A stretch of DNA of 64,000 nt from an uncultured Bacilli bacterium (GTDB taxonomy: Bacteria; Bacillota_I; Bacilli_A; RF39; UBA660). The translations under genes were made by a program, and so were the position numbers. The stretch lies in assembly GCA_944331895.1 (NCBI GenBank), contig CALVIX010000003.1, positions 74,953 to 138,952 of the forward strand, in the 5' to 3' direction. The notes beneath the pieces are model-generated. The model was not told the DNA's origin and ran no database searches. It was given only the letters and a program-made list of their open reading frames with translations. Positions 1 through 21,977 of the stretch are shown one piece after another. The first letter of the stretch is position 1. Each line of letters begins with the position of its first letter.

Positions 1-605
1 AAAAAGACATCACTAATAGCATCGTTAATTTTCTTTTGTTTTCTAAAATAGCGGATAAATTGAATATCATTATAGTTAATATAAATATAGTAGATAAACC
101 CTGAGAATGACAGCAATAATCCAATCCAAAAATTTACTCGCACCATGATAAACATAAGCACAATGATTTTTATGGAAGAATTGATCACCTCAAAAATAGC
201 GTCAATATAAAGTGGAACATCTACAGTATCTGAATTGACCACATTGTAAAGCCGCCCATGCGATACTTTATCCGTAAAATGTTCATCGACGATTGCTAGT
301 TTCTTTAAAAATTTTCGATATAAATTTTCACAAAAATATAACCCATTTTGCGTATAAGCTCGATAATTTTCCCACCAAAAAAGAGAGATGAAAAAATAAT
401 TCAAACCTAGAATACCACACCATAAAAAAGCTTCATCCGGCTGATTTTCAGTTGCGTATTTAATAATCATAGAAACTGCAAAAGGTACGACTAATTCTAG
501 TAAGTGTGCCAAAATAGAACATACATATTCTATCGATAAAACACTCCATTTTACTTTTGATACTTTAAAAGGTGCAGTAAAAAAATCAATCACTTGATGT
601 ACCAT
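1..605 (-). CDS. ABC exporter, N-terminal transmembrane domain (5' part only; gene runs off the window start)
   Basis: Absent from the ORF track because it has no in-window stop. My translation from ATG at 605 gives MVHQVIDFFTAPFKVSKVKWSVLSIEYVCSILAHLLELVVPFAVSMIIKY...DKVSHGRLYNVVNSDTVDV..., with several hydrophobic spans and the G-x-L-x-x-x-x-x-D loop typical of MsbA-type ABC membrane domains. Confidence 0.5.
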   Translation of the reverse strand, partial: MVHQVIDFFTAPFKVSKVKWSVLSIEYVCSILAHLLELVVPFAVSMIIKYATENQPDEAFLWCGILGLNYFFISLFWWENYRAYTQNGLYFCENLYRKFLKKLAIVDEHFTDKVSHGRLYNVVNSDTVDVPLYIDAIFEVINSSIKIIVLMFIMVRVNFWIGLLLSFSGFIYYIYINYNDIQFIRYFRKQKKINDAISDVF

Positions 606-684
606 CTCACACACCCCTATTCTATATAATATAGTATATCAAAACTCATATTGAAAAACAATAAAAAAGGATGATTTCTCACCC

Positions 685-1710
685 TTAGTCACCAGCTGCT
701 GAACTATTTGTACTGAATTGTAAATCGAATGAAATGTTTCCACCAGATGCATTGTTTTCACAGTCTACATCCTGTCCTTCAATCCACATATAGATTCTAA
801 CTTTTGTAATACCTTTACTCAATGTAATCAATTGTTGATATTCAGCAAAACCATCATCAGTTTTAATTTTTGGTATTACTGTTTGGAATTTATCATTTGC
901 CTGCGTTGCATTCGCATTTCCTAATGTAATATTAGCATCTGAATTAAACTCAGCTTTGATTCCATCATATGGTACTGGATCGTTTCCAGTTCCTGCAGTA
1001 ATATCATCAATTCCATAAGTGTCACGTGCGTTTGCTACACCAAATGATGTATGTGAATCTGCATTTGGTTCCCAGATCGTCACAGCTGACCCTACACCGT
1101 TATTCAAACCTTGAATATTAGGGATTGTATCATCACTTGTCGTATTTCCTAATACTACGAATGCAACTCTCGTAGCATTTTTAATTCCGGTATCAGCGGC
1201 ATCCTTGAAAGAAACTCCTGAATTCGTCGTTAAATAGATTGGTGCTTCAGATTCTGTACGTAAGAAAATATCGTATGCTACATAAGAACCATTTGCTCCA
1301 TCCGCATCTATTTGTTTCGTTGAACTTAATACCCAGTCTCCAGTATCATTAGAAGTAACTTCTCCTAGATACATATTCATCGTACCACCGGCATCCATAA
1401 CACCTGCACTTGATACTGGTTCTAGCATCGCAGGTAATTGGTTCTTTGCTGCTGTATAATTTCCCTTTGCTCCCGTGATATCTGTCGTCGTCAAAATAGA
1501 TTTCCAATTTTGACCATCAGCAGAAATTTGTAGACCACTTTTTGCAGCTACGTTAACATCAATTGGATTTACTGAAACAGTCTTATTTGCTGTAAACCAT
1601 GCGTAAGTTGCAGTACCTAAGAAAATTCCAGTTCCAACGAGTAGTAACAATGACAAAAGTAATCTTCTCTGTTTTCTTTGATTTCTCTTCTTTTTCTTAT
1701 TACTATTCAT
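685..1710 (-). CDS. Secreted TasA-like protein, family A (SipW-cognate-type signal; EGQDVDC C-terminal motif)
   Basis: 341-aa ORF with RBS GGGAGAG upstream. Basic n-region KKKKRNQRKQRR, one hydrophobic span, then GTATYAWFTANKTV. Paralogue of 12881-13870 (shared NATRxAF, IWEPNxDxHT, PYDGxxAE, ITKVRIYMWxEGQDVDCE). Confidence 0.6.
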   Translation of the reverse strand: MNSNKKKKRNQRKQRRLLLSLLLLVGTGIFLGTATYAWFTANKTVSVNPIDVNVAAKSGLQISADGQNWKSILTTTDITGAKGNYTAAKNQLPAMLEPVSSAGVMDAGGTMNMYLGEVTSNDTGDWVLSSTKQIDADGANGSYVAYDIFLRTESEAPIYLTTNSGVSFKDAADTGIKNATRVAFVVLGNTTSDDTIPNIQGLNNGVGSAVTIWEPNADSHTSFGVANARDTYGIDDITAGTGNDPVPYDGIKAEFNSDANITLGNANATQANDKFQTVIPKIKTDDGFAEYQQLITLSKGITKVRIYMWIEGQDVDCENNASGGNISFDLQFSTNSSAAGD

Positions 1711-1797
1711 AAATCAATCTCTCCCTATTCTTAACATCTTAATTTTATCAAAATTTTTTTCATAAAGCAACATGTTTTTGACACTAATTGACAAATT

Positions 1798-2364
1798 TTA
1801 CACTTGCGTTGCAGTAATTGTTACTTCTACATGATCTATTAAATCTTGATACACTTCTTCATTATAATTAGTTGGAAAATTTACGATCAATTGATAGTGA
1901 TTCGTCATCTCTTTTTCTTTTTCAAACCTCTGCTTTGGAGTTGAAAATTTAAAGAAATACATTCCGTCTTCATCCTGTATAATTTCTTTATTCTGAAAAT
2001 CATTGACCGTGGCATCATTCAGATAGATTTTATAATCGACAGGAATATTCGTCGTAGTTTCCAATTCTAATGTATATTCCAAATCAACTTCGCTGACATT
2101 ATCATCTTTAAAATTAGAAACATCTATATTGAAAATATAATCTTTTCCATCCGGTTTTACATCGAACATTTTTAATGTTTGCGATTCCGTCGTCGGATGA
2201 ATGATGTAAAATGCGATATCTCCGACAGCTGTTCCCGAACCATCTGTAAAAAATCTCGCAAATACAACCCTCATTCCGAGTAATAATAATAGAATACCAA
2301 CGATCGCAATCGTAATCTTTTGAAATTGCCAGAATTTCTTTTTATCAATCATCTTTACCACCAT
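1798..2364 (-). CDS. Membrane-anchored or secreted protein, family B (paralogous to the N-domain of 20558-21487)
   Basis: 188-aa ORF with one N-terminal span followed by VVFARFFTDG. YIFNIDVSNFKDDNVSEVDLEYTLEL aligns with YNIVINLNSFKNNHLKSNSDIDYEVSL of the 309-aa ORF. An alternative start at 2352 (ATG overlapping the sipW stop) is possible. Confidence 0.5.
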   Translation of the reverse strand: MVVKMIDKKKFWQFQKITIAIVGILLLLLGMRVVFARFFTDGSGTAVGDIAFYIIHPTTESQTLKMFDVKPDGKDYIFNIDVSNFKDDNVSEVDLEYTLELETTTNIPVDYKIYLNDATVNDFQNKEIIQDEDGMYFFKFSTPKQRFEKEKEMTNHYQLIVNFPTNYNEEVYQDLIDHVEVTITATQV

Positions 2365-2920
2365 TTTTCATCTGAATACCAGAATAATAAATAGCAAAGT
2401 CGGCATTGTCTGGCAGATGCTTCTTCCCAGTATACGCAAAAGCAATAGAGAACAAAAACAAAGTCACGCAGATCATAGCGATAATTTTAGGTGTCGATAG
2501 CACCTTAAACCATACGCCAAACTGAGGCAATATCTTGACCACTTTTCCCACTACTTGTTCTTTTAAAATAACTTTATCTTGTTCCATATTTGCATCACCT
2601 TTAGTGACATATCCCGTTTGGGTTACCTGCTGTACACGGTGCGTAATGAGAGTATCTCCATCCTTGTAAGTAATAATATCTCCTACTTTAATATTTTCAT
2701 CTGATAATTTTACGATAATTAAATCATTCGTCGTAATCGCAGGAGCCATACTGTTACTTCCAATCTGAAAAAACGTATAGGAAAAGAAATTAACATACTT
2801 ATTGGAAAGTACTTTTATACTTACGAAAGAGTATAGACAAAGAACAAGCACGATTCCTAATATGACAAATAGGATATTGCTGATTACTTTCATAGATCTA
2901 TACACGATCTCACTCTTCAT
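2345..2920 (-). CDS. sipW: Signal peptidase I, SipW (ER/archaeal) type, catalytic residues present
   Basis: 191 aa with N- and C-terminal membrane spans. Ser box IGSNSMAPAI, GDIITY, His box ITHRV, TKGDANMEQD; this matches the SGSMEP / THR / GDNN layout of B. subtilis SipW. Confidence 0.8.
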   Translation of the reverse strand: MKSEIVYRSMKVISNILFVILGIVLVLCLYSFVSIKVLSNKYVNFFSYTFFQIGSNSMAPAITTNDLIIVKLSDENIKVGDIITYKDGDTLITHRVQQVTQTGYVTKGDANMEQDKVILKEQVVGKVVKILPQFGVWFKVLSTPKIIAMICVTLFLFSIAFAYTGKKHLPDNADFAIYYSGIQMKNGGKDD

Positions 2921-2939
2921 GCGATCACCACCTTTGATT

Positions 2940-3515
2940 TTATTCTTTTATATACTGTTCAAACTGAATCGTTATTGGAATCAAAAACTGACTATCAGGA
3001 TCTTGTCCTAGCTCAGAATCTGTCTCGTTATATTGATCATCCCACACCCAATGGAACGTCACCTGAATCGTATCTGTTTTACCAGCTTCGATATCATCTA
3101 ATGTTACAACGCGACGATATACGCCATTTTCTTCTATTAACTGTGTACCGTTGACACCAACAACTTCATCTACTGTAATCTGATCATATTCTTGCTTTTC
3201 TAAGTCCAACTTCAATTGATATTGAAACGAAACCTCCGTATCCTTAGGATCGATTTCGATCAAAAACTTTCCTGTTACACCAGGCGCGAACTTCGAAACA
3301 GGATTTCCATTTCGATCGACATAGGAAATCTCATCGATGTAAAATGTTCGATCTGTCTGATTTAAATCGCTATCATTTACGGTAATATGCCATTTCGCAA
3401 CTGTGAGTTCACTTTCGTCATCGATACTAGTTTCAAATAATCCAAAGCTTTTCGTTATTTGAAATATCGTAAGACAACAAAAGAGAATACTTATTACTAT
3501 GAGTATTTTCTTCAT
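2940..3515 (-). CDS. Secreted TasA/camelysin-like protein, family C
   Basis: 191 aa with signal-like N-terminus ending ITKSFGLFETS. VAKWHITVNDSDL, APGVTGKFLIEIDPKDTEVSFQYQL and VTFHWVWDD are all mirrored in the plus-strand ORF 15144-15734. Confidence 0.55.
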   Translation of the reverse strand: MKKILIVISILFCCLTIFQITKSFGLFETSIDDESELTVAKWHITVNDSDLNQTDRTFYIDEISYVDRNGNPVSKFAPGVTGKFLIEIDPKDTEVSFQYQLKLDLEKQEYDQITVDEVVGVNGTQLIEENGVYRRVVTLDDIEAGKTDTIQVTFHWVWDDQYNETDSELGQDPDSQFLIPITIQFEQYIKE

Positions 3516-4042
3516 TCATCCTCGTCTTCGATTGGCGCCTTAATCTCGATAATCACACGGTATAGTTCATATAAGAACAATAGTAAAGTTGGTAAAATAA
3601 CTAAAATGAGAAATCCAAAACGAGATTCTAATATAGATAGGATTTGTCCAAGTTCTGGATAAACCTTCGCAGATTCCGTTCTTCCAATTAAACTAGAACT
3701 TGAAATGTCATGATTATCGTTAATCGTAAATGTACGTTCATCTTCATCTACTGGCAACACCTCTGTTACAGTTCCATAATGAATACTTGGTATTCCATTC
3801 GTTACCTCGTAGAAGAAAATCTCGTCGTTTTCTTTTACTTTTTCCATTTCTCCTTGGCGAAATAATACTAAATCACCATCGTTATATTTATCAGAATCAT
3901 CATCGATGATAATAAAACTATAGCCTAACATCTCTGTTACTTTATAATCATTGTAGCAAAGTAAACATGATGTGACTAAAATAATCACTGCCAAATAACA
4001 TACTCCGATGACTCCTAATATTCCTTTTAAAACTAATTTCAT
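3512..4042 (-). CDS. SipW-like pseudo-peptidase (nucleophile Ser replaced)
   Basis: 176 aa with the same N-TM / beta core / C-TM layout as SipW. NDGDLVLF aligns with NTGSLILV of SipW, which puts IIIDDDSDKY where GSMxP should be (Ser to Asp). Acidic C-terminal tail. Confidence 0.5.
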   Translation of the reverse strand: MKLVLKGILGVIGVCYLAVIILVTSCLLCYNDYKVTEMLGYSFIIIDDDSDKYNDGDLVLFRQGEMEKVKENDEIFFYEVTNGIPSIHYGTVTEVLPVDEDERTFTINDNHDISSSSLIGRTESAKVYPELGQILSILESRFGFLILVILPTLLLFLYELYRVIIEIKAPIEDEDE

Positions 4043-4086
4043 ATCCCTACTCCTTCATGTTTCTATTTTATCACAAAAACAATTCA

Positions 4087-5634
4087 TTACCTAGCGATTT
4101 CTTTTTTTTCCATGATTTTCTGAACTTTCTTTACTCTTATTAAATCATCGATAGATATATGAAGTTTTTGTAGTTGATAATATATAATTATCTTTTTTAA
4201 ATCTGTCTTACACTGTTTTAACTGTTCTGTTGCTAACATATCTTCTTTTAGATCAACGCCTAGTAATCGATAGTTAGAAATCAACATAGAAGCGACATTT
4301 CCTTCTTCCGATATCGTCAAATTATTGATCATTGTATTGTTCGGATTTAAAACGAATTGATAAAGATTTTGATGTTCTTCATCTACTTTTTCATATGTCG
4401 TTTGTGGATCTTTTTCAAAACACATATCAGCTAAGAATGCATAATATTGACTCACGAGCAATAATGATTTAAAAATCGTTGAATTGTCTTTCATGTGCTC
4501 TTTGACAGTATAGTGAAACATCACCTGATCCACTTCGTGATATTGTGCTTCTATCTCGCTGATCACCTGATTGATTTCTGGTGTGATTTTGTCTACTTTT
4601 GTCTTAGAAAAAGTCCCCCGAGATTTTTTATTTAATTTTGTTAACTTCTTTTCTAATTCTTTGATCTTCTTAAAATGTTTTTGCAATACATTACGGTCTA
4701 AATCTTCTTTGTATAACGATCTGATTTTGGCAATCAACGCTTCATATTTCTGATAATTTTCGTATTCTTCTAACGAGTGTAATAATTTGAAAGCAACATT
4801 TTCTAACTCGGATTCTTTTCCTTCAAAAGAGTTTCCAAAATACGTATTTATTAAATTTTTAATTTTTTCTTCCGTATAATCATCTACATTATAAGCTCCT
4901 GACACAAAACAATATAATAGATGTTCCTTCTTCCCAAGCTTTTCCATCTCTAACTTATGACATAGATAACTATAGTCATCGATCAAACTTTTTTCTCCAT
5001 GTTGAAAACGCGATAACATCTCTGCATTCGTACGAGTGATGTATTGTTCGAATTTCTTCTTGTGTTTTAAATATAGATGGCGAAGATTCAATTCAATTTC
5101 TAAAATTAAATATGGATCTTTCCAATAGAGTTCTTCAAATACTTTTTCTAACGTTCCACTATTGATATAGTTTTGATAGGAAAAGAAGGATTCCATATAT
5201 TGGTGTGAGAACTTCGTATAGTTAAAATCGGATGCCTGCAAAGATATCCCTACTTTGTTAAATACAGATATCACTCTTTTTAAAACGTGATTATTATCGT
5301 TTAAACGATTCATCTTATAGCGTGAAAGTTGATACATATTTTTATCTAGTCTTAATTTTTCATACGCCGTTGCTAAATTATTCGTATAGGATAATGCTTT
5401 AGAAAGTTGCATCAGCGCATCATGGTATTCTTGAAAAGACTGTGGCTGTAAAGATAAATATGGTTTTTCACGGTTCACAAGTTCCGTATAAATCATATTT
5501 ACCTTTTCTTGATAAGTTGCAATTTCACGCTCTATTTCATTTAAAAACTTCGTTTGGTTTTTTAAATTGTTCGTCGGTAAACTTTGAAATACTTCACGGC
5601 TTAATGCGATTTCTTTTTCAATTCTTTCCTTCAT
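4087..5634 (-). CDS. Cytoplasmic K/E/L-rich helical protein, unknown function
   Basis: 515-aa ORF with no hydrophobic span and no motif I recognise. Its start is overlapped by the small ORF 5618-5746. Confidence 0.6.
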   Translation of the reverse strand: MKERIEKEIALSREVFQSLPTNNLKNQTKFLNEIEREIATYQEKVNMIYTELVNREKPYLSLQPQSFQEYHDALMQLSKALSYTNNLATAYEKLRLDKNMYQLSRYKMNRLNDNNHVLKRVISVFNKVGISLQASDFNYTKFSHQYMESFFSYQNYINSGTLEKVFEELYWKDPYLILEIELNLRHLYLKHKKKFEQYITRTNAEMLSRFQHGEKSLIDDYSYLCHKLEMEKLGKKEHLLYCFVSGAYNVDDYTEEKIKNLINTYFGNSFEGKESELENVAFKLLHSLEEYENYQKYEALIAKIRSLYKEDLDRNVLQKHFKKIKELEKKLTKLNKKSRGTFSKTKVDKITPEINQVISEIEAQYHEVDQVMFHYTVKEHMKDNSTIFKSLLLVSQYYAFLADMCFEKDPQTTYEKVDEEHQNLYQFVLNPNNTMINNLTISEEGNVASMLISNYRLLGVDLKEDMLATEQLKQCKTDLKKIIIYYQLQKLHISIDDLIRVKKVQKIMEKKEIAR

Positions 5635-5746
5635 TTTCTACACTCTTTTCCACTTCTTTTTTCTTCGTTTCTAATTCTTTTAAATAATCATTTATCACTT
5701 GATAACACTCGATCAATTCATCTGTATTTACTGTTTCTAAATCCAT
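5618..5746 (-). CDS. Small acidic coiled-coil ORF (42 aa), not in the ORF track
   Basis: AGGAGG (5753-5758) sits 6 nt upstream of ATG at 5746. Translation: MDLETVNTDELIECYQVINDYLKELETKKKEVEKSVENEGKN. The RBS abuts the stop codon of the giant ORF (5757-5759), and the ORF's stop overlaps the 515-aa ORF start by 17 nt, suggesting translational coupling. Confidence 0.4.
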   Translation of the reverse strand: MDLETVNTDELIECYQVINDYLKELETKKKEVEKSVENEGKN

Positions 5747-5756
5747 ATGGTTCCTC

Positions 5757-8700
5757 CTATTTTATTATAACATATTCTGTACAATCTCCTATCAAAGTAT
5801 CTCCGTCGTATAATCGAAATACAAACCGATATGTACCACTTTTTAAATTTGATTTTAAATATAAATTCTTATCGCTTTCCGCAGCCGGCATTTCTGAAAG
5901 TAAATATTCATTTTCATTTTTCTGCTGCATATTGTTTGAAACATAATCTAACAAGTTGACTTGAGAGTATGTCGTATCGTAAATCTCATCGTAATTTCTT
6001 CTAAACAAGCTAACGCGTATATTTGGATTAGATAAATTAGAAGAGTACTTTACGTGGAAAATAAGGGCGTTATTTCCTAGTGTCGTATACCCTGTTTCTT
6101 TATCTACGATCGTCTGTCTCTCATCTAAAGAAACGTCTAATCCATAACGACTATTGATAATCTCAAATGGAATTGTAATCTGATCCGATGAATTCGTTCC
6201 AAAATAGATCCCATCTGGCGAACCAAACGATTCGATTTTCATCGTGTAATTTCCACTAGCCAAGTTAACGTTATTCGTATGAATTTTAATACGACTCAAT
6301 ACATTGGCAACCTTATCTGCAAGTGGAATACGAATACTTCCATCCATACGTGGATAATAAGTAACTCCATCCAACTCGTAAGTAAGTCCAAGTAAGCTAC
6401 TATTGTTCAATTGATTTTGATTCGCATCAAAGATCGTAATGTAAACACCAAGACGCTTATCTAGATATGTCGTATCTACAACAGTTGCTCCACTTGCCGT
6501 CGATTGAGTGAAGTTCGTCGTCAATGTCAAATCGCTATCTTCACCGATATAAATTGGATTTTTACTTAAAGTTCCTTCGACATCGATCACTGCGTCTCGA
6601 TTATCATATAAGTTATAAGTTAGGTTCGCATGTTGAATTCCGAGAACGCTAATCAAAGTTTGATCTTGCGCGTTTCGAAGTTCCATGAGTAAACTCTTTC
6701 CAATCTGATCCCCTTCGATCGTGGTATCTCCAAAATCGACGATAAAGATAAATTCTTCTTCGATAATTCCCATCTCTTCGTCATAGTAAAGTTCCATATT
6801 TTTTTGTTCGTTATAATTATTGTCTGCACTCGTCGATCCCATGGCAATAAAATCACTTAAATAATAAGAACTTTCTCCATATAACGCATGTTCTGCTGTT
6901 GCATTTCGATAATCTTCTTCATCGATGACATGATAATAGTATGTTGGCATCGTCGCAAAGTCGATCATCGTTATCTTTGTTCCAACTGGCAATACGTAAC
7001 TAGATACAAGTGCATGCTGATATCCCGTTTGATAATATGGTTTATCTGTTTCCATATAAAGAGAATAATAAGCACTCAAGGATGATTTCGTTGTAATGTT
7101 CGTCTGTGTCGATGCGAATAAATCGTATTTTTCCCCTGTCGTCATCGCACCTTCATATTCGTTATTTGCATATAATGCAGAATTGATCGTTACGTTGATA
7201 TTGACACGAGTTACCTCGTTATTTAATTCATCGATCGGTGTTATCTCCAAAAGGGAAATGACAACGGTACCAATTTCTCTTGCCTGTGTTAAATTTTTAG
7301 AATGGTACAAATAGAAGATGAAACTAGGTACAGCACTTGAATTCTCCGATTGATAATTGGTTGTCCCAACGACGGAAGATCCTTCTTCGGTTCTAAAGTT
7401 TGTAGATCCTTTCGTAACGAAACCTGTATTAGATGCCTCCATCGAAAGCCCCATGATGTCATCTGCTTTTCCATCTCGATTGACTCTTTCAATCGTATCT
7501 GGATCGACAAGTTCAAACCCTTCTTCGAGATTCTGATAGTTAAATCCTAAAATCTCAAACTGCGTATTCGCTCCACCAGATGTTACTAAAGGTAACTCGT
7601 ACGTACCTAACGTCGCATACTTAGATGCCGTTAAAGTAAGTTCGTACGTTTCAACGGTCTCTCCAATTACCCACATATAATAACTAGCATCGCTCGGTGT
7701 AGGTTCAATATACTTCACTTCTACTGTTCCTTCGACATCTTCATTTTCATAGTTACTATAAAAACCATCTTTCGTAATATCGTGATTTGTATTGTGTAAT
7801 CCTAAGACGTAGCTTCCTGATGTGAATGCATAGAACTCTCCAGAAGCAACAGTATCCCCTGCATCGTATTTTTGATGGTAAAATGCAGTTAATACGCGAT
7901 CGTTACGATCTAATTGATACATTCCAAAGAACGTCATTCCACTCACTTCTCCATAGCTCGTGACGGCTTCGTTTGTCGCGATATTCATGTTTTTGCCTTC
8001 TAACATATAAACGCGATTATCGACATTTTTCGTGACACTTCCGCCTTCAGTAATCGTAACACTTGCCTCAGTCTCATTCTCTCCATCGATCTTTAAACTA
8101 TTAAATTTTTGTAATAAGTTCGTTCCGTTATCTAAAAATAGAGTACTATTATTTGCTAACTTTAATTCCTTGACACGACTAATACTAAATTTTGTCGTCG
8201 AAAATTCATTCGTACGGTCTGTCGTTCCTTCTAATTTAATTGCAGAATTTTTAAGAGTTACAATATCTGCTCTTTGAATAGAAATATTTTCCTGGTACTG
8301 ATCAAAAGTACCATAATTTGAAATATCGATATAACTATAACCTTCTGTACTAGATGCGTTTCCAGAACCAAAGATAGAACCTTTGATATAAAATTGATCA
8401 TATCCATCTCCATCGATTGTAATTTGGATTCCTTCTGTTACACTGATAAAAGAATAGTCGTAGTTTGGATCTCCTTCGGCATTGGCTTCTCCTCCTCCAA
8501 AGACAGTTCCATCGATCATGATATCGCTCTTCGTTAAATTTTCATTCGATCCGATATTTAATTCTACCGTTCCATAAAGTACGGCTGTATTGGCTCCCCC
8601 ATATACATTTCCATGGATCGCAGCTCCAGCTATATTGACGTGACTGACAGAACGATTGACTTCCTTCGTTCCCGTATTTGCGGCGTTTCCTCCACCAAAA

Positions 8701-11700
8701 ACATGTTGATCCACTATCGTATTTTGATCTACGTTGAGTGTCGTCGAACCATGGACGATTGCACTTTGTCCATTGCCACCAGCGTAGATACTACTTTGGA
8801 TATGAGAATTTGAAATGTTTACCTCGGTATCTCCCGATACAATTCCAAGATTTCCTCCACCAAACAAATCTCCAGCGATCGATGAATTTTTAAAAACTAC
8901 TTTCGTATCATAATTAACGGCAGCTTGATTTCCTCCACCGAAGAATTCTCCGTTCATCGTAATAGAGTCTACTTGAACATTGGTCTGATCTGTCGGTGCC
9001 ATATTTCCGCCACCATATAAATTGGTATAACTTCCTCCATTTAACGTAACATTAGCGTCTTTGGTAACACCACCTTGATTATTTCCACCATATACATTTC
9101 CGACAGTCAAATTAGATGGATTTTCAGCTTTCACATTTGAAGTTTCTACTGTTCCTGCTTGATTACTTCCACCAAATGCATAAGTAGCTTGTCCGGATTT
9201 CAAATCGACGTTCGTCGTCGTAACACCAGCTTGGTTTCCACCACCATAAATACTTCCGACGGTAGATCCAGATAGAGTCAGATTCGATGTCGTCGTAGAA
9301 GTTTTATTTCCTCCGCCATAGGCGTTCGTAATCGTTCCTCCGCTTAATAATATATTCGTCGTCGCAGTAATTCCACCTTGGTTATTTCCACCATATACGT
9401 TCGTTAAATTACCACCCGTAATACGAATATCTGACTGTGGAACATTTCCTAGGATGTTAGAACCACCATATAATTCTCCAATCGTCGCATTTTCTACCAT
9501 AATCAAGGTAGATTGTGACATGTTCGCTTGTTCTCCGCCACCGTAGACGGTATCTACTGTTCCATTTTTGATCGTAAGTGTACTTGTATTGCTATCGGTT
9601 AGTTTTCCACCACCATACATCGTACCAACGGTACCACCAGTCATTGTAATATTCGTCGTAGTCGTTTTCCCACCGACATTATTTCCACCATATATGTTGG
9701 TTGCCGATCCTCCTGAAATAGTAATCTGGGCATTTTCAACATCGCCACTTTGATTACTTCCACCAAATAAATTCGTAACCTGACTACCATTTTGAAAAAC
9801 ATTTGTCTCCGATACTAAAGTGTTATTTCCACCACCGTAGGCATTTGTAATCGTTCCTCCGTTTAAGGTAACAACAACACTTCCGTTTGGCTCTCCTTTA
9901 GCGTCATTCCCGCCAAATAGATTGGTGATCACTCCTCCTGTCGTCGTAACAGAGACATCTCCTGCTACATATGGTGTAATCGTCTGATTTCCCTTTCCAC
10001 CACCAAATACTTGATTGATAGTTCCTGCATTGACGATAACACTCGTAGAATATGCACTTTGTGTCGTCGTTTTCTGTCCCGAATTGACTACACCAAAGGC
10101 ACTTCCTCCGTAAACTGAACCTGTTACGTTTAAATTTCTCGTACGAGCTGTACCTACAGTCATATCGATATTTTGAGTTACGTAAGTATCTTCTCCAAGT
10201 CCACCACCATAGGCGTCTTTTAAAGATCCATTTACAAGAGTAACTGCACTACTTCCATAAACTGTTCCTTCCTGATTACTTCCACCATAGATAGAATCTA
10301 ATACGGATCCTCCATCCATCGTAATCTCGATCGTGGATGTAACTCTTCCACTTCTTCCAGAACCACTGTGGTTTCCACTTCCAAAAACGGATCCATTTAC
10401 AGTCCCACCGACTAATTGGATGGATGTTGTAGAACTATTAGAAGCACTATAACCAACTGTACCATAGTTCCCACTACCATATACGTTCTTCTTTACGACT
10501 GCTTGATCGGCAATCACAATGTTAGAATGATTTACCGAACCGATGGTTGCATATCTTGAATTTCCGTTTCCACTTCCAAAGACAGAACCAGCTTCAGATC
10601 CCCATATCGTAGAACCATTATTGATATATGTATCATTTCCTATGGTTGCGGTTCCACCAATATAAACATAAGAGTCCCCCGTAAGCGTTCCATCACTACT
10701 ACTACCATCATATCCATTACTTCCCCCAAAGATACTATAATTTACAGTACCTCCAGTAACTTGCAAAATACGATTTCCATATGTAGTTGAAGTTCCTGCT
10801 CCACCAGTGATCGTATCCGCTTCTCCACCTGTCATATAAATATAGGTATCGTTCGTAGACCCCTTCGAACTTGCTGTCAACGGACCCCCGATAAGATTTG
10901 CGATATACCCGCCTTCTATTTTAGCAAGACGTGGTGCATAATGTGTCCCACCTTGACGACCACCTACATAAATACCAGAAGTATGATCGATATCGTGCGT
11001 TCCAAAACGTCCGCTTTTTACAATCGTATTCAGTGCAGGTGTCAGATCGTTATTCGACGAGTAAATTCGTCCTCCCCAACTACCAGATGCACAAAAGTAA
11101 ACAAGTAAGTTATCGTTATTGACAGTAACCCTATCATAATCATTTCCATATACTCCATACGTTTCTGTATATAACTGCGTCCCACTCGTTCCAGTCGATG
11201 ATCCCATCGTTAAAGATACAGAATTATAATCACCAGATTCTATTACAAGTTCATATCGTTCCGGATTGGAAGATGACCCAAAGGTTCCTCCACCCCAAAA
11301 ACTGTCGGAGTTTCTCCCACCTAAAATAGATGTAAAGTTAACATAATTTCCATTTTGTTTAATATTTCTTCCAAATTTTACGTTAAAATAATTACCATAA
11401 AACGTAGCGCTCGCACTATTTCTACTGGAAGGATCTACTTCCCTATGAGAAGTGGTTGTCGAAATAGTCATATTTTCTATTCTAAGATCCGAATAAGCTG
11501 TGACGCTTAAATTGTTAACATTCCATGTTGGATTATAATCAATACTATTATGTATACCAGTCAGCGTAAAAGGTTTCGTGCTTGATTCACTCCATCCCCT
11601 CGACATATTTCCATTCATAACTAAAATGTTCGTATCGCGCGTCGTCAGGTAGTAATAATCTGCGTCTGGATCGAGCTTTTCTTCTGTCCCGTCTGCTTTA

Positions 11701-15143: not shown

Positions 15144-15734
15144 TTGATTAAAGTGAAAAAATGGAAATTATTGATCGCTATTTGTGCTTTGATCTTTTGC
15201 GTCACACAAATACAACAAACTTATGCGAAATATCTAGATACGAAAGAAGGCGATACAGATTTTACCATTGCTCAATGGAAAATCCTCGTCAACGATCAAG
15301 ATATTACAGAAGCTGCAACAATGTCTTCTCTAGTTAACCCAGTATATCTCGAAAACGAGCATGTAAAAGACGGAGTCATCGCTCCTGGACAAAATGGATA
15401 TTTTGATCTGACGATCGATTCAAGCAAGACGGAAGTATCCTTTTCCTATGCGATTCAAATCGCGACATCCGATCAAAGTTCTGTCTCTGATCTTGCAATT
15501 ACTGGATATCAAGTGAACGATAGTGGTCTCGTATCTGTCGATCAAGCAGTCAATACAATTCAAAATAATATATATTACAATGATCCGACCAAAGAAAATA
15601 AAATTCGCGTATACTTCCAGTGGAAAGATGGTGTAGGAGAAACGATGGATAACGCTGCCGATACCAACGCATCGTTAAGTGGAGAGAGCGCTAAACTGAA
15701 AGTTAATATTACGTTTACACAAATTGCAAATTAA
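15144..15734 (+). CDS. Secreted TasA/camelysin-like protein, family C (paralogue of 2940-3515); one of only two plus-strand genes called
   Basis: 196 aa with a TTG start in the track. Signal-like N-terminus ending IQQTYAKYLDT. IAQWKILVNDQDI, APGQNGYFDLTIDSSKTEVSFSYAI, VYFQWKDG. Confidence 0.55.
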   Translation: MIKVKKWKLLIAICALIFCVTQIQQTYAKYLDTKEGDTDFTIAQWKILVNDQDITEAATMSSLVNPVYLENEHVKDGVIAPGQNGYFDLTIDSSKTEVSFSYAIQIATSDQSSVSDLAITGYQVNDSGLVSVDQAVNTIQNNIYYNDPTKENKIRVYFQWKDGVGETMDNAADTNASLSGESAKLKVNITFTQIAN

Positions 15735-15762: not shown

Positions 15763-16345
15763 GACTTGCTGTCAATTTAACGATAATTTCAATTTGTTTT
15801 TCTCCTGGATAGTCTTGCTTATAACTATAGCTCTTTTTTCCCCAATAAGTATCTAATTCATCATTTCCGGACTCATACGGCCAATCTAACCCTACTCGAA
15901 AGCTCGCTTTCGCACCGATATCAATTTCCGATTGATCGACTCCCAGAGTTAATTTAAAAGGATAGTTATTCTGTAACATTTCAATTAACTCATCACTTGT
16001 ATAATCCGCATCCGTATATACTTCATCCATAATCTTGATCGATTTTACTTCGTATGTAATATAAGCCAACATCTCTCCAGAATTGCTAATTTCGATAAAT
16101 TCCTCGAAAGATTCCATTCCCGGATAGATCGAATCAATCTCGAAAGTAACATCTTCCTCTAGATCATTTCCATCTTGTTCAAATGTTACCTTCCATGATT
16201 TTACCCCAGTAGTGATACTGTTGGATACTTTATTGCTATAGATAAACCATGCAAAAGAATTTGCCATAAAAGCAAAAATTAGAAAAAATAATGTACTTCT
16301 ACGTATTCTTCGTTTCGTCTTTTTCATGAGTGTTTTCTTCTTCAT
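15743..16345 (-). CDS. Secreted TasA/camelysin-like protein with SipW-cognate-type signal
   Basis: MKKKTLMKKTKRRIRR, one span, then ANSFAWFIYSNKV. IYPGMESFEEFIEISNSGEMLAYITYEV resembles the TasA LKPGD...NNGSL segment. Start uncertain: GTG 16357, ATG 16345 or ATG 16327. Confidence 0.55.
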   Translation of the reverse strand: MKKKTLMKKTKRRIRRSTLFFLIFAFMANSFAWFIYSNKVSNSITTGVKSWKVTFEQDGNDLEEDVTFEIDSIYPGMESFEEFIEISNSGEMLAYITYEVKSIKIMDEVYTDADYTSDELIEMLQNNYPFKLTLGVDQSEIDIGAKASFRVGLDWPYESGNDELDTYWGKKSYSYKQDYPGEKQIEIIVKLTASQKRPQN

Positions 16346-16907
16346 CGGACAACTCACTTTCTTTCTCTTTGATATAATCGAGTATTTCTAAGAAAATTAA
16401 AATTGCAATCGGAACAAACACAAGAAAATATAATCCGTAGGAATTATTTAAAATATGACTTAACCAACTTAATACTTGCGGTCTATAAACGACAACTCCA
16501 TACATTTGATCTTCTCGAATTTCCGGATCAGGTGTATTATTTGCTGTTCCTTGCGTCGTATAATAATAAGTTCCATTCTCTTCTCTTACTTTCTTTACTC
16601 TATGCGTAATGACCCTATCTTTATAATCTCCTGTTTTGCCAAGATAAGTTAAATCATCTCCCACCTGAATTTCATCTGGTTTTTTTTCTTTGATGATAAT
16701 CACATCGTAAATATCGTATTCTGGCATCATACTACCTGTTACAACTGTAAACATGCGATAACTACCAATACTGACTTGATTGTTGAATAATCTTTGAATT
16801 CCAATAACTAATACGATCAAAATCACAAAAATCCAAATCATCACTTTTATAAACCCAAACAGAAACTTAAGAAAAGGATTATTCAGTATTTTTTTCATCA
16901 TCTTCAT
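16299..16907 (-). CDS. sipW: Signal peptidase I, SipW type (Ser and His boxes present; GDNN box reads GTANN)
   Basis: 202 aa with VVTGSMMPEYDIYDVIIIK, GDDLTY, ITHRV, TTQGTANNTPD, a C-terminal span and an acidic tail. Its start overlaps the stop of the upstream 379-aa ORF. Confidence 0.7.
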   Translation of the reverse strand: MKMMKKILNNPFLKFLFGFIKVMIWIFVILIVLVIGIQRLFNNQVSIGSYRMFTVVTGSMMPEYDIYDVIIIKEKKPDEIQVGDDLTYLGKTGDYKDRVITHRVKKVREENGTYYYTTQGTANNTPDPEIREDQMYGVVVYRPQVLSWLSHILNNSYGLYFLVFVPIAILIFLEILDYIKEKESELSDEEENTHEKDETKNT

Positions 16908-18018
16908 TTTTTTTCACCTTCAAATGATCTGTCTTATCGATGTATTCACTCATCGCTTTTTTGTAGATCTTTTCAATTTCACTCGTATCTACAACCTTTT
17001 TATATTTTACTTTTACATATTCTTTTCCAATCAACTTCATCACTTCATCTAAAGATAGTTGATCACTGATATTCATAAGTTGATTGATAGACTGACTTAC
17101 GACACGAGCCTGTAAATTTTCTTTTTCTTCCTCTGTTACCTCTTTTTTATGTAAGGTATCCATGATCAAGCAATTTAACAAAAATGATTCATCCATCATA
17201 TCTTTCAACTTACCTTGATCTTTATAATCTTTATTCGAATGATCCTTTTTTACACTAGGTTCCATATGTGTTTGAAGATAATTCCATAAAGTTAAGGCAT
17301 ATTGGAAATTAACATTTTTCAAAATCAAATTTGTCTTTTTAATCGGAGATGTTACCATAGCTACGTGTAATTTAGCAATACTACGGTATACTTCTGAAGA
17401 ACATAGATCACGAATCTGTTCTTCTACTTTCGTAATTCTTTCAGCAAGTGTTCCTTTATCTCCCTTTTTTTGATCGCTTTCAATCTTACCCGTCAGATGA
17501 ACAGAGATCTCCACCCTTTCATTGTCGATCTTTCCCTTTCCCTGATATTTCAATTCTTTGAGCGAAGAAAAAGATTGCTCGACAAGTTCTTCTTGTTTTT
17601 TTCTCTCGATATACATCTTCATATGATTGATCAACGTATAGATAAAACGATTTTCATAGGTATTAAATGTCTCTTCTTTATTGATATTTAATATTTTAGA
17701 TGGTTTTACTTCCCCAGTCTTAGGATCGATTTCTTGAATCAAATTCGTATTCTTTGACAAATGTTTAATACTATCCACAGTAATTCGACGTGCCAACTCA
17801 ATTTTTACGATCTCTTCTTCGTTGATGATAAAACGATTAGGACTGCGCAAAATATTATCTAAATATCGGATTGTCTCTTCCATTTTTACGAGCCATTCGT
17901 CGTCGTACTCGGATTGATCCATTTTATCTTTCACCTGTAACTCGGAACTTAACGACTGTTTGAATTTCTCTTTCGTCCGATCCGTCGTTTTTCCGTAAAG
18001 TTCTATAATTCCATCCAT
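16879..18018 (-). CDS. Cytoplasmic partner of the McrB-like GTPase (McrC position; no nuclease motif seen)
   Basis: 379 aa starting 13 nt after the GTPase stop. The TYENRFIYTLINHM segment and overall N-terminal region recall the McrC/DUF2357 N-domain (from memory, weak). The C-terminal half is K/E-rich and helical. Confidence 0.45.
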   Translation of the reverse strand: MDGIIELYGKTTDRTKEKFKQSLSSELQVKDKMDQSEYDDEWLVKMEETIRYLDNILRSPNRFIINEEEIVKIELARRITVDSIKHLSKNTNLIQEIDPKTGEVKPSKILNINKEETFNTYENRFIYTLINHMKMYIERKKQEELVEQSFSSLKELKYQGKGKIDNERVEISVHLTGKIESDQKKGDKGTLAERITKVEEQIRDLCSSEVYRSIAKLHVAMVTSPIKKTNLILKNVNFQYALTLWNYLQTHMEPSVKKDHSNKDYKDQGKLKDMMDESFLLNCLIMDTLHKKEVTEEEKENLQARVVSQSINQLMNISDQLSLDEVMKLIGKEYVKVKYKKVVDTSEIEKIYKKAMSEYIDKTDHLKVKKNEDDEKNTE

Positions 18019-18031
18019 ACTCTCACCTACA

Positions 18032-19555
18032 CTATGTTAATTTTTTCAATCTTAATAAGTACTCTTCACACTCTTTCATTTTCCCTTGACCAAACGTCTG
18101 GTCTAAAAATTCGATAAACCCGTCGATTTCATCGCGAATGTAAGATACGTTTAACTGTTCAAACTTACGAAGGATTTTACGTGCCACAAAGTAATCTACT
18201 CCACTGACTTCATCTCCACCACAAGCAATATAAACCGGAACAAATTTTCTCATATGTGCGACAATACGGTTACCAAACGCAATACGGAAATGTTTGATTA
18301 CATAGTTATCCATCTCTTCTATTTTATTTAAAATGTCCGCACTCATTTCGTTTTGATTCATAGCTTCCGCAAAGATACGCTCTAAATAAGAATAATTGAT
18401 ATCCTGTGATGGGGTATCGATCGGTTCGAACACCTCACCTTTGTCATTGATGTCAATTGGCATCGCACGGTCATATACTTTATCTGTTACCATGAAAGTA
18501 GAGTCGTCATTATTGATCGTTCCGATATACCAAGTATTTGGACTAATCTTTAATTTCCCGTCGATCAATTTTTTAGGATCGTTCGGCCAACTACTAGAAA
18601 CTAGTTCGACAATCCATTCATCTTTGTTTGGCATTTCCAAAATAGATAACATCTCTGCAAAGTAATACTCTACTCTGGCGATGTTCATCTCATCTAGAAT
18701 CACGGTATATACATCGTCCGTATATCCAGCTTCATAGATCGTCTTTAACACTTCTGTCTCATTAAACTTCTTCGTAAATTCGTTAAAGTATCCAAATAAT
18801 TCAGTACGATCACGCCATGATGGCTGAACAGATGCGATACAAGAATCATGCTTTAAAAATTTTCCCCAAGCATATGCTAGAGATGTTTTTCCGGTACCAG
18901 AAATACCTTGTAAAATAATGAGCTTCGTAGACGCTAAAGCAGCGATAAAAATACGAATCATCTCTGACTTATAATAAAGATGTAATTGACTTGCTGCAAA
19001 ATTTCGAAACAACTCCACTAGTTCTTCCAAAGTAAACGTATTGTTGTAATTCTTTTTTGTATAGCTTTGATATGCGAGATCCACTTCGTTTAACTTAGCA
19101 AATCTAATTCCATCTGCATTTACATTCTCCTCTTCTGGATCAGTTGGTTCTTCTACTTCACTCTCATTCGGTTTCAACCCTAAATGCGATACCTTCATTG
19201 CCAAAATATCTTCTTTTTCTTTGACTAAACTAGATACCTCGTCATTTAATTTTGCAACTTCCTCCAAAAGCTCTTCTTGTTCTACTAAGGTCTTGCGAAA
19301 GCGAATATACTTTCGAACCAAGAAAACGATCAAGAATACAAATGCCACTACAATCAAGATTAAAAAGACAATGACAAGAGCGACAAAGATCCATTCCGGA
19401 CCATTAAAATCTTCTTTGTAGAAATTTAAAATACGTAGATAAGCTTTGAAATCGAACATGTGCTTAATTCCCTCGATCGCAGCGAGCGCTATTTGTAATA
19501 AACTACCAAAAAACTGGCTTAAAAATTCATATAAAAATCGAAATACTGTATCCAT
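18032..19555 (-). CDS. Membrane-tethered McrB-family AAA+ GTPase
   Basis: TM span at aa 55-80, coiled-coil at aa ~88-120, Walker A GISGTGKTS (nt 18884-18907), VQPSWRDRTELFGYF, VILDEMNIARVEYYFAEMLSILE, IGTINNDDSTFMVTDKVYDRAMPI (NxxD at the McrB NTAD position). Confidence 0.75.
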   Translation of the reverse strand: MDTVFRFLYEFLSQFFGSLLQIALAAIEGIKHMFDFKAYLRILNFYKEDFNGPEWIFVALVIVFLILIVVAFVFLIVFLVRKYIRFRKTLVEQEELLEEVAKLNDEVSSLVKEKEDILAMKVSHLGLKPNESEVEEPTDPEEENVNADGIRFAKLNEVDLAYQSYTKKNYNNTFTLEELVELFRNFAASQLHLYYKSEMIRIFIAALASTKLIILQGISGTGKTSLAYAWGKFLKHDSCIASVQPSWRDRTELFGYFNEFTKKFNETEVLKTIYEAGYTDDVYTVILDEMNIARVEYYFAEMLSILEMPNKDEWIVELVSSSWPNDPKKLIDGKLKISPNTWYIGTINNDDSTFMVTDKVYDRAMPIDINDKGEVFEPIDTPSQDINYSYLERIFAEAMNQNEMSADILNKIEEMDNYVIKHFRIAFGNRIVAHMRKFVPVYIACGGDEVSGVDYFVARKILRKFEQLNVSYIRDEIDGFIEFLDQTFGQGKMKECEEYLLRLKKLT

Positions 19556-19565
19556 TCATTCACCT

Positions 19566-20546
19566 CTATTTTGGAATATATAACACTTGAAAATAATCTT
19601 TTAAAGTATCATATAATTTTTCATCATCTGTAATAATATATGTAAATACACGAAGTAAAACATAAGCTTCTTCGTTCCATACAAAGTGGTCATCTAGACA
19701 AATAGCAATATGAAATCCTTCCCTCGTCAAGCGATAGACTTCCTCTTTGTTCTCTAGATACTCTGTATAAGAAATTTTAAATGCTAGTTTTTCTTTGGTA
19801 ATATCATTATCGATTATATTTAAGAGTCTCTTTTGTTTCTTCGGTTTATCCTTTAATGCTAGAATATAATCCACTAAATAATATTTTTGATATATTCCCT
19901 TGATAATATCTTGTAAAATTTTAACACCGACGTAAGAATATAATATAAATAACTTTTGTTCTTCGATATCTTTATTGTGGAATACCTTTTGAATCGCATA
20001 CTCACTATATAACTTTGAAAATTTTAAATTATGTTCTAATTCACAATCAAAGATTCGATCGTTATTTACCTTAATATAGTTAATGCTAAAGTTTTTATCT
20101 TTAAATTTATCTATAAATTCTTGTTTTGCAAGCAAATCATCTTTTAGCTGATTATAAAACTTCACCTCGAACTCGTCGTCTTGAAGTCCCAATTCATTCT
20201 CTCGAAACTTTGCTACTTTCGCGATAATAGCGCGTACAGAATCACACTCACAAACGCCATCAAAATACAAAATATATTGAAACATCGAAAACATGTACTT
20301 TGCTTTTTTCCGATATTTTGAATCATCTTTGACATTTTCAAGTGACTTTTTTAAATAGTAGACCAAGTTCTTTTCAAATCTTTGATCTACCATTGGATAC
20401 ATATGATAATATCTCGTATTGATATATGCATTGATCAAATCATCATAGATATCCTGATCGAAATAATGTCCCAGAATCATCTGCAAATATTTCTTGATTG
20501 CCTTTTGCGAAAACGAAACATATTCTTTTACAATATTACAGCTCAC
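19566..20546 (-). CDS. Cytoplasmic protein, unknown function (326 aa)
   Basis: Long ORF tightly packed in the operon (10-11 nt gaps on both sides) with no hydrophobic span. Confidence 0.55.
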   Translation of the reverse strand: MSCNIVKEYVSFSQKAIKKYLQMILGHYFDQDIYDDLINAYINTRYYHMYPMVDQRFEKNLVYYLKKSLENVKDDSKYRKKAKYMFSMFQYILYFDGVCECDSVRAIIAKVAKFRENELGLQDDEFEVKFYNQLKDDLLAKQEFIDKFKDKNFSINYIKVNNDRIFDCELEHNLKFSKLYSEYAIQKVFHNKDIEEQKLFILYSYVGVKILQDIIKGIYQKYYLVDYILALKDKPKKQKRLLNIIDNDITKEKLAFKISYTEYLENKEEVYRLTREGFHIAICLDDHFVWNEEAYVLLRVFTYIITDDEKLYDTLKDYFQVLYIPK

Positions 20547-20557
20547 AATACCAACTC

Positions 20558-21487
20558 CTAGTAATTATATTCGACCGTTACAATTCCACTACCACTTCCA
20601 TCGTTCGAATAATCTTTTGTTACATCCTTTTTATAAAATCTCATCACACTACTACTCGATGCGGGCATATCAAACGTAAATTGATTGATATAATCATACC
20701 CATTTATCTTTTCTGTTTGAATGTTATATCCCCGTAAAAATGTCGTACTATTATTATCTACATATACGATATTTGGATCGAAGGATAATGTGATGCTTGC
20801 AGAAACACATTTATTCTTCTCCTCTTGCGTCAACGCATTATATTGCGCGATCGACAATTGATCGCCTACTGCATGCGTTCCAAATGCTTCCTGGACTGTA
20901 TAATATAATAGTGTATTTGTCACCTTCACCTCAAGATAAACATCGTTTTCATGATCGATAATCTCATGACTTAATCCATACGTACCTACCACTAATTTAA
21001 ACTGTGCCGACAATTTTTTATGATAAGGACTTACAGATTCTGCGACAATTTCCGCAACGACACTATCTCCATCCTGAAACGTCTGTGTCGGAGTAATCGT
21101 AACGATAAATTGATCATTATTACTGTCGTGATAGATCGTTCCTTTTTCTTTTGTCGTATTACAGATTACTGTTTCAGAACAATTGAGAGAAACCTCATAA
21201 TCGATGTCACTATTACTCTTCAAATGATTATTTTTAAAACTATTCAAGTTGATGACAATATTATATGGATCCACTCCGTTCCAATAATCAAGTGAATAAC
21301 TCGCACCATCTTGCGTTAACTTGTCACTTTCAAAATAAAAGTTCTGCGTACGAAAATAGAAATTCAACACTTGATGATAAACAAACCGTCCCAACGTAAA
21401 TCCGACTGTCATAAATGCAAAAATTGCAACTACTAATACAACTCCACGCTGAAACTTATTAAGACGTCGTACTCTAATTTTTGGCAT
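20558..21487 (-). CDS. Membrane-anchored or secreted protein, family B (309 aa)
   Basis: Basic n-region RVRRLNKFQR, one span, then FTLGRFVYHQ. The N-domain is paralogous to 1798-2364. Confidence 0.55.
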   Translation of the reverse strand: MPKIRVRRLNKFQRGVVLVVAIFAFMTVGFTLGRFVYHQVLNFYFRTQNFYFESDKLTQDGASYSLDYWNGVDPYNIVINLNSFKNNHLKSNSDIDYEVSLNCSETVICNTTKEKGTIYHDSNNDQFIVTITPTQTFQDGDSVVAEIVAESVSPYHKKLSAQFKLVVGTYGLSHEIIDHENDVYLEVKVTNTLLYYTVQEAFGTHAVGDQLSIAQYNALTQEEKNKCVSASITLSFDPNIVYVDNNSTTFLRGYNIQTEKINGYDYINQFTFDMPASSSSVMRFYKKDVTKDYSNDGSGSGIVTVEYNY

Positions 21488-21977
21488 AACTTAACGACTT
21501 TCTATATTTTCGTACCAGTATAATAAAAGCGATCATAATTGGTAACATCACAATTAGAAAATATCCTAATTGACTTGTCAAAACCCGATACGGATACCCT
21601 AACATCGGAATTTGTCGCACATCTTTTATATTTCCTATCAAATATTCGCTCGACAAAAATAAGCCATCTTGAATCACGTAAGTATACTCTTTCTCGTTTG
21701 TCTTCATGACGTCTTCTACTTTTGTTACGTCGATCTTTCTTTTTCCGTTTTTCGTATTGTAATAGATAATTTCATCCCCTTTTTGGATCGATGATATATC
21801 CTTCTTACTCACGATTAAATTACCTGCTTTCAACTCTTCCGAATTTTCAGTTATCCCAACGATCATCGTATCCCCAATGACGCTATCCGAAAATTGATTA
21901 CAGGTAAACAAGAAAAAAGTTGCTACTAGTACTAATACTGTGTAACATATGATTCCAATATACTTTGCGATTCTCAT
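21474..21977 (-). CDS. SipW-like pseudo-peptidase (Ser and His boxes both lost)
   Basis: 167 aa with N-TM and C-TM as in SipW. KAGNLIVSKK aligns with NTGSLILVK, which puts ITENSEEL where GSMEPEF should be. VTKVEDV replaces THR. Confidence 0.5.
   Translation of the reverse strand: MRIAKYIGIICYTVLVLVATFFLFTCNQFSDSVIGDTMIVGITENSEELKAGNLIVSKKDISSIQKGDEIIYYNTKNGKRKIDVTKVEDVMKTNEKEYTYVIQDGLFLSSEYLIGNIKDVRQIPMLGYPYRVLTSQLGYFLIVMLPIMIAFIILVRKYRKSLSYAKN

Follow-up and report, generated by a model that had tools for sequence, protein, structure and literature searches.

DEAD2, the product of a 176-codon gene in the window (the whole 64,000-nucleotide stretch of DNA analyzed here), is a membrane protein of SipW-type signal peptidase descent that has lost all of its catalytic residues and is nevertheless maintained by selection. 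It is one of two dead and two active SipW-type copies in the window, the complement that a previous sequence-only reading had counted, and the coordinates of these and of the neighboring genes are collected in Table 1. The role that we rate at somewhat better than even is that of a non-cutting membrane subunit, which by analogy with a streptococcal pilus protein would hold or position the N-terminal segment of a subunit beside the active SipW.

Table 1. Positions in the window of the DEAD2 gene, its ribosome-binding signal and the other named genes of the locus
Feature	Coordinates	Strand	Remarks
DEAD2, dead SipW-type paralogue	3512..4042	-	176 aa; TM1, beta core, TM2, acidic cytoplasmic tail
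Shine-Dalgarno GAAGGAG of DEAD2	4050..4056	-	7 nt 5′ of the ATG at 4042; read from sequence
p191, secreted beta-sandwich protein	2940..3515	-	ATGA-coupled to DEAD2; paralogue of the plus-strand gene 15144-15734
Active SipW-type signal peptidase, cassette 2	2345..2920	-	GSNSMAP, ITHRV, KGDAN..D; TIGR02228 90 bits, above cut-off
DEAD1, second dead SipW-type paralogue	21474..21977	-	167 aa; overlaps the p309 start by 14 nt
p309, secreted or anchored protein	20558..21487	-	adjoins the dead copy in 7/11 loci
p326, cytoplasmic protein	19566..20546	-	homologous to the C-terminal fusion partner of dead-adjoining active SipW in five related genera
Membrane-anchored McrB-like GTPase	18032..19555	-	507 aa; TM 60-78, GISGTGKTS P-loop
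McrC-like partner	16879..18018	-	379 aa; DUF2357 = McrC N-terminal domain
Active SipW-type signal peptidase, cassette 1	16299..16907	-	TGSMMP, ITHRV

A gene that has lost its active site could be a decaying pseudogene or a spurious open reading frame, but the lost catalytic residues are the only observation that speaks for this and we give the idea practically no credence. The reading frame is intact from its ATG start to its TGA stop and has a strong ribosome-binding site, and the stop codon shares 4 nt with the ATG of p191 (ATGA at 3515-3512), so that DEAD2 and p191 are translationally coupled. Orthologues of 57–87% identity, found in MAGs labelled uncultured Tenericutes, Acholeplasmataceae, Mycoplasmatota or Bacilli, are all full length, and dN/dS (Nei-Gojobori) between DEAD2 and those of 71–87% identity is 0.08–0.16; both the organism labels and the dN/dS values derive from a single-protein search that yielded five close loci. 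For the unsaturated pair L029-L030 (dS 0.28) the ratio is 0.13. At 50% identity the family as a whole amounts to 572 clusters at E<=1e-3 and to 227 at the stricter E<=1e-10, with hundreds of diverged full-length homologues, and its position is syntenic across 10 genera. Purifying selection, number of homologues and synteny together refute a pseudogene, in agreement with the sequence-only reading, which had treated the gene as degenerate in catalysis but not in decay.

Descent from SipW is weak when judged from the single sequence. DEAD2 matches the NF046067 SipW profile at E 2.6e-4 (residues 35–168 on profile positions 32–170 of 189) and TIGR02228 at E 4.6e-3, in both cases under the curated cut-offs (20.6 vs 190 bits and 16.8 vs 51.85 bits, respectively), while BLASTP against the neighboring active SipW is not significant (E 0.45) and a Pfam search with DEAD2 gave nothing, with DUF5305 at E 0.33. 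The question is settled by profile-profile comparison, on which DEAD2 is homologous to active SipW over its whole length: hhalign of the dead family (22 members) with the active SipW family (18 members) gave 98.8% and E 1e-16 across 159 colinear columns. The first dead-family alignment, A1, held a chimeric row, P0056, and the profile tests were repeated without it, after which hhalign still returned 98.4% and E 4.4e-15 and hmmsearch with the dead-family profile found active SipWs at E 1e-15 to 1e-7. Individually, 20/27 dead-family members match TIGR02228 (E<=0.01; best E 3.9e-11) and only 2/27 touch TIGR02227. The chimeric sequence lies on an ENA contig of 3312 bp and joins about 70 N-terminal residues of an active SipW (SDSMAP) to a dead-family C-terminal half at the G-N/D-IFFY box; either an assembly artefact or recombination could account for it.

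Structure comparison points the same way. When the AF2 model of DEAD2 (pLDDT 78.9) was searched with Foldseek, human SEC11C and SEC11A were the top two PDB matches at probability 1.00, with E 5.5e-3 and 1.1e-2 and modest TM values of 0.40–0.50, and these are the same SEC11 chains that the active SipW family profile reaches by sequence (E 2e-8 to SEC11A). The dead-family profile, when searched against PDB sequences, gave chance matches only (E>0.2) and no signal peptidase at E<=10, so the homology is carried by the profile-profile and fold comparisons. The idea of a SipW-derived pseudo-peptidase is borne out. The architecture that had been claimed for it, an N-terminal span, a beta-rich core and a C-terminal span, is also found: there are two hydrophobic spans at about 11–29 and 134–152, as in the active copies, and in the model the beta core is flanked by two long terminal helices. 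Ancestry and topology, with N- and C-terminal spans and the beta core outside, are common to DEAD2 and to SipW of B. subtilis, SEC11 and archaeal SPase I (MEROPS S26B), and DEAD2 has kept box C (GDL), the IG motif and the LG motif before the second span. The S26B enzymes and the dead family are also alike in being encoded with TasA-like substrates that have an aromatic residue at P2′. Unlike those enzymes, DEAD2 lacks the Ser nucleophile, the His and the box E Asp, and because it also scores far under the curated family cut-offs it cannot be a peptidase of the S26B type.

The positions of the missing residues were mapped by profile alignment and by a 34-sequence MAFFT alignment, which agree. 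Ser57-Met58 of the active enzyme (box B, S-M-x-P) is opposite a gap of 2 residues that separates D49 from S50 in DEAD2, with variable flanking columns among 143 members; His94 (box D, T-H-R) aligns with Y89, where the family has Y, L or I; and D109, N111 and D115 of box E align with T104, T106 and N110, G-D-x-N...D having become T-x-T...N in a region where the dead family has a 6-residue deletion. H88 of DEAD2 was considered as a catalytic His and rejected, being one position off and in a column that is not conserved (N, K, E). No Ser/His pair was found in catalytic positions of DEAD2, which upholds the catalytic degeneracy first suspected from its nucleophile box. As judged from these alignments the catalytic residues are lost in the whole dead family as well as in DEAD2: a regular-expression motif screen of its 146 best representatives detected no SM-P or THR box, and the former catalytic columns are variable among the 143 representatives, drawn from the 572 clusters (E<=1e-3, library clustered at 50% identity), that were aligned for conservation.

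What is conserved in those 143 sequences lies elsewhere. G132 (100%), N31 (97%), G120 (96%), and L58, Y78, S140 and P151 (92% each) are the most constant positions, together with G143 and T24, and conservation clusters at the two membrane interfaces and in TM2 (T24, L27-L28, N31, S140, G143, P151, Y158-E159), while the beta core is still constrained at GDL, GD-IFFY and IG. The constancy of S140 and N31, and of K/R141 (88%), might suggest a hydrolase that has turned to other residues, e.g. S140 with K/R141, E139 or N31, but these residues sit at the TM1/TM2 membrane interface and not in the cleft, and we know of no S26 enzyme that uses an interface site of the S140 type. Moreover, the LxSxLQSRxGF motif around S140 also occurs in an active SipW of a related locus, L026, that has its normal Ser and His, so the S140 region predates inactivation. 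A replacement active site is accordingly a highly improbable explanation, and the conserved S140 region is probably structural.

That SipW (L026 9637-10242, genome G020; TKSMEP, KTHR, KGDNND) carries the dead-family C-terminal motif LGTVLSFLQSRVGFF...P...FIYQLY, scores equally with the dead and active HMMs, and is placed next to the dead/active split in the tree; on this basis it seems, of the active forms, to be the nearest to the dead clade. The maximum likelihood tree, for which these loci supplied 12 dead SipW-type domains and 22 others, sets all dead sequences apart by a branch with 100/97 support, and within the dead group the cassette-1 type (21474-21977, L025) is separate from the cassette-2 type to which DEAD2 belongs. 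A single dead clade suggests one inactivation, long retention and a duplication giving DEAD1 and DEAD2, and the tree fits such a history of one ancient inactivation followed by duplication. The dead copy that had been proposed for cassette 1 is a true homologue of DEAD2 (BLASTP E 9e-21, 28% identity).

The first 22 kb of the window hold, on the minus strand and downstream of rpoB and rpoC, one tightly packed locus transcribed from high to low coordinates, with intergenic gaps of -59 to +122 nt. In order of transcription it consists of DEAD1, p309, p326, the 507-aa P-loop protein, the 379-aa DUF2357 protein, the first active SipW and p204; then a plus-strand gene for a 196-aa protein, p236, a 332-aa TasA-like protein, a 2368-aa giant protein and a 515-aa helical protein; and finally DEAD2, p191, the second active SipW, p188 and a 341-aa protein that carries the TIGR04088 SipW-dependent signal peptide. 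Within 600-6000 a single terminator-like site occurs, and it comes after the last gene. An active SipW does lie two genes downstream of DEAD2, as had been noted, with an intact GSNSMAP box and a TIGR02228 score over the cut-off. E. coli McrB provided the only PDB sequence matches to the McrB-like GTPase, at a weak E 3.3e-3, and Pfam showed no AAA_5 match in it; its McrC-like partner matches PF09823 at E 5.8e-12 (45.8 bits, cut-off 23.3). The genome is 1.12 Mb (83% complete) and has a LepB-type housekeeping peptidase elsewhere (155 bits), so that the SipW-type genes would be dedicated to the fiber system. An aromatic residue at +2 is what makes TasA ill-suited to LepB and leaves it to the dedicated SipW (PMC10269814), and an aromatic residue at +2 of the cleavage motif, read by eye, is common to all secreted proteins of the locus. 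Nine secreted proteins (window 685-21487) have the by-eye cleavage pattern S/T/V-F/Y/L-A/G | W/K/R/L/N/A-F/Y/W, the vertical line marking the cut, with TYA|WFT, SYA|WFT, SFA|WFI, TYA|KYL, SFG|LFE, VFA|RFF and TLG|RFV as examples.

In a fold search p191, whose gene is the one coupled to DEAD2, had weak beta-sandwich matches to the pilins EbpC and BcpA, to the TasA fiber (8aur) and to archaeal bundling pili (7ueg), at E 4e-3 to 5e-2 and TM below 0.4, and these modelled similarities are compatible with p191 being a fiber subunit but are not decisive. Coupling to a protein of this kind favors a subunit that holds without cutting. In that scheme DEAD2 would span the membrane next to the active SipW, its beta core facing outward, and would bind and position a partner, the likeliest being the signal-anchor or N-terminal segment of the product of the adjoining gene, i.e. 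p191 here and p309 in most relatives. The partner might then be passed to the active peptidase or be kept at the membrane as the base of a fiber. The dead protein would on this account be a fixed component of a surface-fiber locus that also comprises TasA-like and other secreted proteins bearing the cleavage motif S/T-F/Y-A/G | W/K/R-F/Y, two active SipWs and the McrBC-like GTPase pair.

In every one of the 10 genera the dead gene belongs to the same type of locus, adjoining an active SipW, p191 or p309. An active SipW adjoins it in most loci and is within the same locus in all, so the expectation that dead and active copies would be conserved together in related genomes is confirmed. The sequence-only reading had further seen a unit in the order dead copy, small secreted protein, active copy; this was only partly right. 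The arrangement dead, p191, active SipW recurs in 4/11 loci (cassette 2 of the window, L017, L018 and L022), but it does not hold as a conserved unit, since in five genera the dead gene stands directly beside an active SipW fused to a p326-like cytoplasmic domain, in the order p309, dead, SipW-p326 fusion and then the McrB-like gene (L019, L020, L021, L023 and L024). The neighbor of the dead copy is thus p191 in 4 loci and p309 in 7, and with a neighbor that varies there is no single obvious client for a holder. In the fusion proteins, which are 670–834 aa long, a long linker rich in K and E connects the peptidase domain to a C-terminal domain with homology to p326 (BLASTP E 3e-22); they are encoded at L019 10460-12631, L020 7464-9572, L021 7567-9579, L023 10394-12898 and L024 7261-9429. 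In one related genome (G014, locus L034), cassette 1, with p309, p326, McrB, McrC, SipW and further genes, is without a recognizable dead copy upstream of p309; a 117-aa ORF is in the place of DEAD1, and the dead copy is kept in cassette 2.

All of the searched genomes that had a dead-family match belong to two GTDB families of Bacilli with small genomes. A genome search gave dead-family matches in 15/41 relatives, 10 of them strong, with one matched genome in the second GTDB family, and when 399 genomes were sampled across the phylum, the family appeared only in the GTDB family of the window (5/16, plus the genome of the window itself). Active SipW, as detected by TIGR02228, is wider, with 26/41 genomes. 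The McrB-like GTPase is present in 18 genomes of the two families, and 15/18 of these have a strong dead-copy match, against a single weak match (G023) among 22 GTPase-negative genomes of the same families; these counts are descriptive, carry no statistical test, and come from genomes that are related and not independent samples. The tightest association found for the dead family is therefore with the locus type that has the McrB-like GTPase, not with SipW in general. The GTPase-positive genomes without a strong dead-copy match are G020, G411 and G314, in the last of which the GTPase is near a contig end.

This association raises an alternative, which we consider unlikely although it has several observations on its side: DEAD2 could be a transmembrane adaptor and not a substrate holder, docking the single-span McrB-like GTPase, the p326-fused SipW or both through its two conserved helices and interface residues, with the old cleft irrelevant, and would so link a cytoplasmic GTPase motor to the extracytoplasmic fiber machinery. 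Besides the tracking of the GTPase, it would account for conservation being highest at transmembrane and juxtamembrane positions, and it is consistent with the fusions of active SipW to cytoplasmic p326 in five genera, which lie directly upstream of the McrB-like GTPase gene just as p326 is encoded just upstream of the GTPase here, and which suggest that peptidase-like membrane proteins are wired to a cytoplasmic module. On the other side are the three GTPase-positive genomes just named, the beta core that is still constrained, and G023, which has a dead copy but lacks McrBC in the surrounding 20 kb and any McrB-like match genome-wide at E<=1e-20. The same G023 locus (L027) shows a further degeneration: its dead copy at 9623-10102 is followed by a second SipW at 10099-10680 that is independently degenerate, with NNNEMYP for GSMxP, the His kept as INHQ, and GIN for GDN.

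For the holder, the closest precedent is SipA of S. pyogenes, a signal-peptidase-like protein without the catalytic Ser and Lys whose peptide-binding cleft is SPase-like and without which pili do not polymerize (PMC4049620). The role proposed here for DEAD2 is taken by analogy from that proposed for SipA in sortase pili, where it would bind a component at the cell surface and not cut it. Both are dead signal peptidase homologues kept by selection in a fiber or pilus cluster. They differ in that SipA derives from the P-type S26A branch (Ser-Lys) and the dead family from the ER/archaeal-type S26B branch (Ser-His), in that DEAD2 has a second, C-terminal span, and in context, since the DEAD2 locus contains TasA-like proteins and a McrBC-like GTPase and no sortase was noticed in it. 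Among the 50 best Foldseek matches to DEAD2 there was no signal-peptidase-like protein beyond SEC11A/C and, given the PDB profile search as well, SipA and the dead family would be independent inventions. Counted against the holder are the three GTPase-positive genomes without a strong dead copy and the modest fold match to SEC11, and conservation at the membrane interfaces and TM2, not at the former cleft, agrees no less well with a transmembrane or partner-contact function than with the binding of peptides. Together with the GTPase link, that pattern keeps alive both the adaptor and a further possibility in which DEAD2 acts on the peptidase itself.

In that further possibility DEAD2 would be a regulatory decoy or partner of active SipW, a heteromer subunit or competitor that alters specificity or delays cleavage with no presentation of substrate. 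It is favored by the active SipW adjoining in most loci and present in all, by the topology common to both proteins with box C and core strands kept, and by the precedent of eukaryotic SEC11, which works only within a multi-subunit complex (7p2p, 7p2q). SipW is not known to form oligomers, however, and the C-terminal half of the dead protein resembles the cassette-1 and L026 SipW types and not the adjoining SipW, so that co-evolution with that neighbor is not evident; we think such a role quite doubtful. Equally doubtful in our estimate, and extending the adaptor idea, is that DEAD2 serves as the membrane adaptor of an NTP-driven fiber machine in which a membrane-anchored, nuclease-less McrBC-type GTPase on the cytoplasmic side is coupled to extracellular SipW-dependent processing and assembly of TasA-like proteins. 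DEAD2 would there keep the signal anchors of subunits until the GTPase motor releases them. Were this true, pilus assembly would have co-opted both the motor of a restriction enzyme and the fold of a peptidase.

Two other systems bear on the locus as a whole. The tapA-sipW-tasA operon of B. subtilis likewise combines a dedicated SipW with fiber subunits and an accessory protein in one operon, but it has neither a dead SipW nor a GTPase module, and its accessory protein TapA, which helps to start or anchor the fiber, is not peptidase-like. Closer is the CoCoPALM type of Bell et al. (PMC11090510), described there as having a McrB-like GTPase with a membrane span and coiled coil, a McrC-like DUF2357 protein and ‘signal peptidase family proteins’. 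By sequence comparison the window locus appears to be of this type, with a TM- and P-loop-containing McrB-like protein, a McrC-like DUF2357 protein and two active plus two dead SipW-type genes; the McrC homologue and the signal peptidases are clear and the McrB match is the weak one given above. In its passages on CoCoPALM that paper merely names the signal peptidase association, does not separate active from dead, and defers the analysis to a later publication; its supplements hold nothing on signal peptidases. A literature search found neither that announced follow-up nor any published account of an inactive SipW or of the dead family.

Pseudo-enzymes with a protease fold that bind and do not cut are a recurring theme of which SipA is one example, and the dead family would be a second, independent case on the other signal peptidase branch. 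It amounts to hundreds of sequence clusters, has no name in Pfam or NCBIfam, and is specific to the CoCoPALM loci, themselves little known, of uncultured gut Bacilli with small genomes; for these loci it provides a clean marker. The ‘signal peptidase family proteins’ of these loci can now be divided into cutters and non-cutters. A third SipW-type kind of about 390–410 aa, with a multi-span N-terminal domain ahead of the peptidase domain, occurs in many genomes of the family, for example at C3:28876-29253 of genome G000 (outside the window) and at 7492-8673 of L025.
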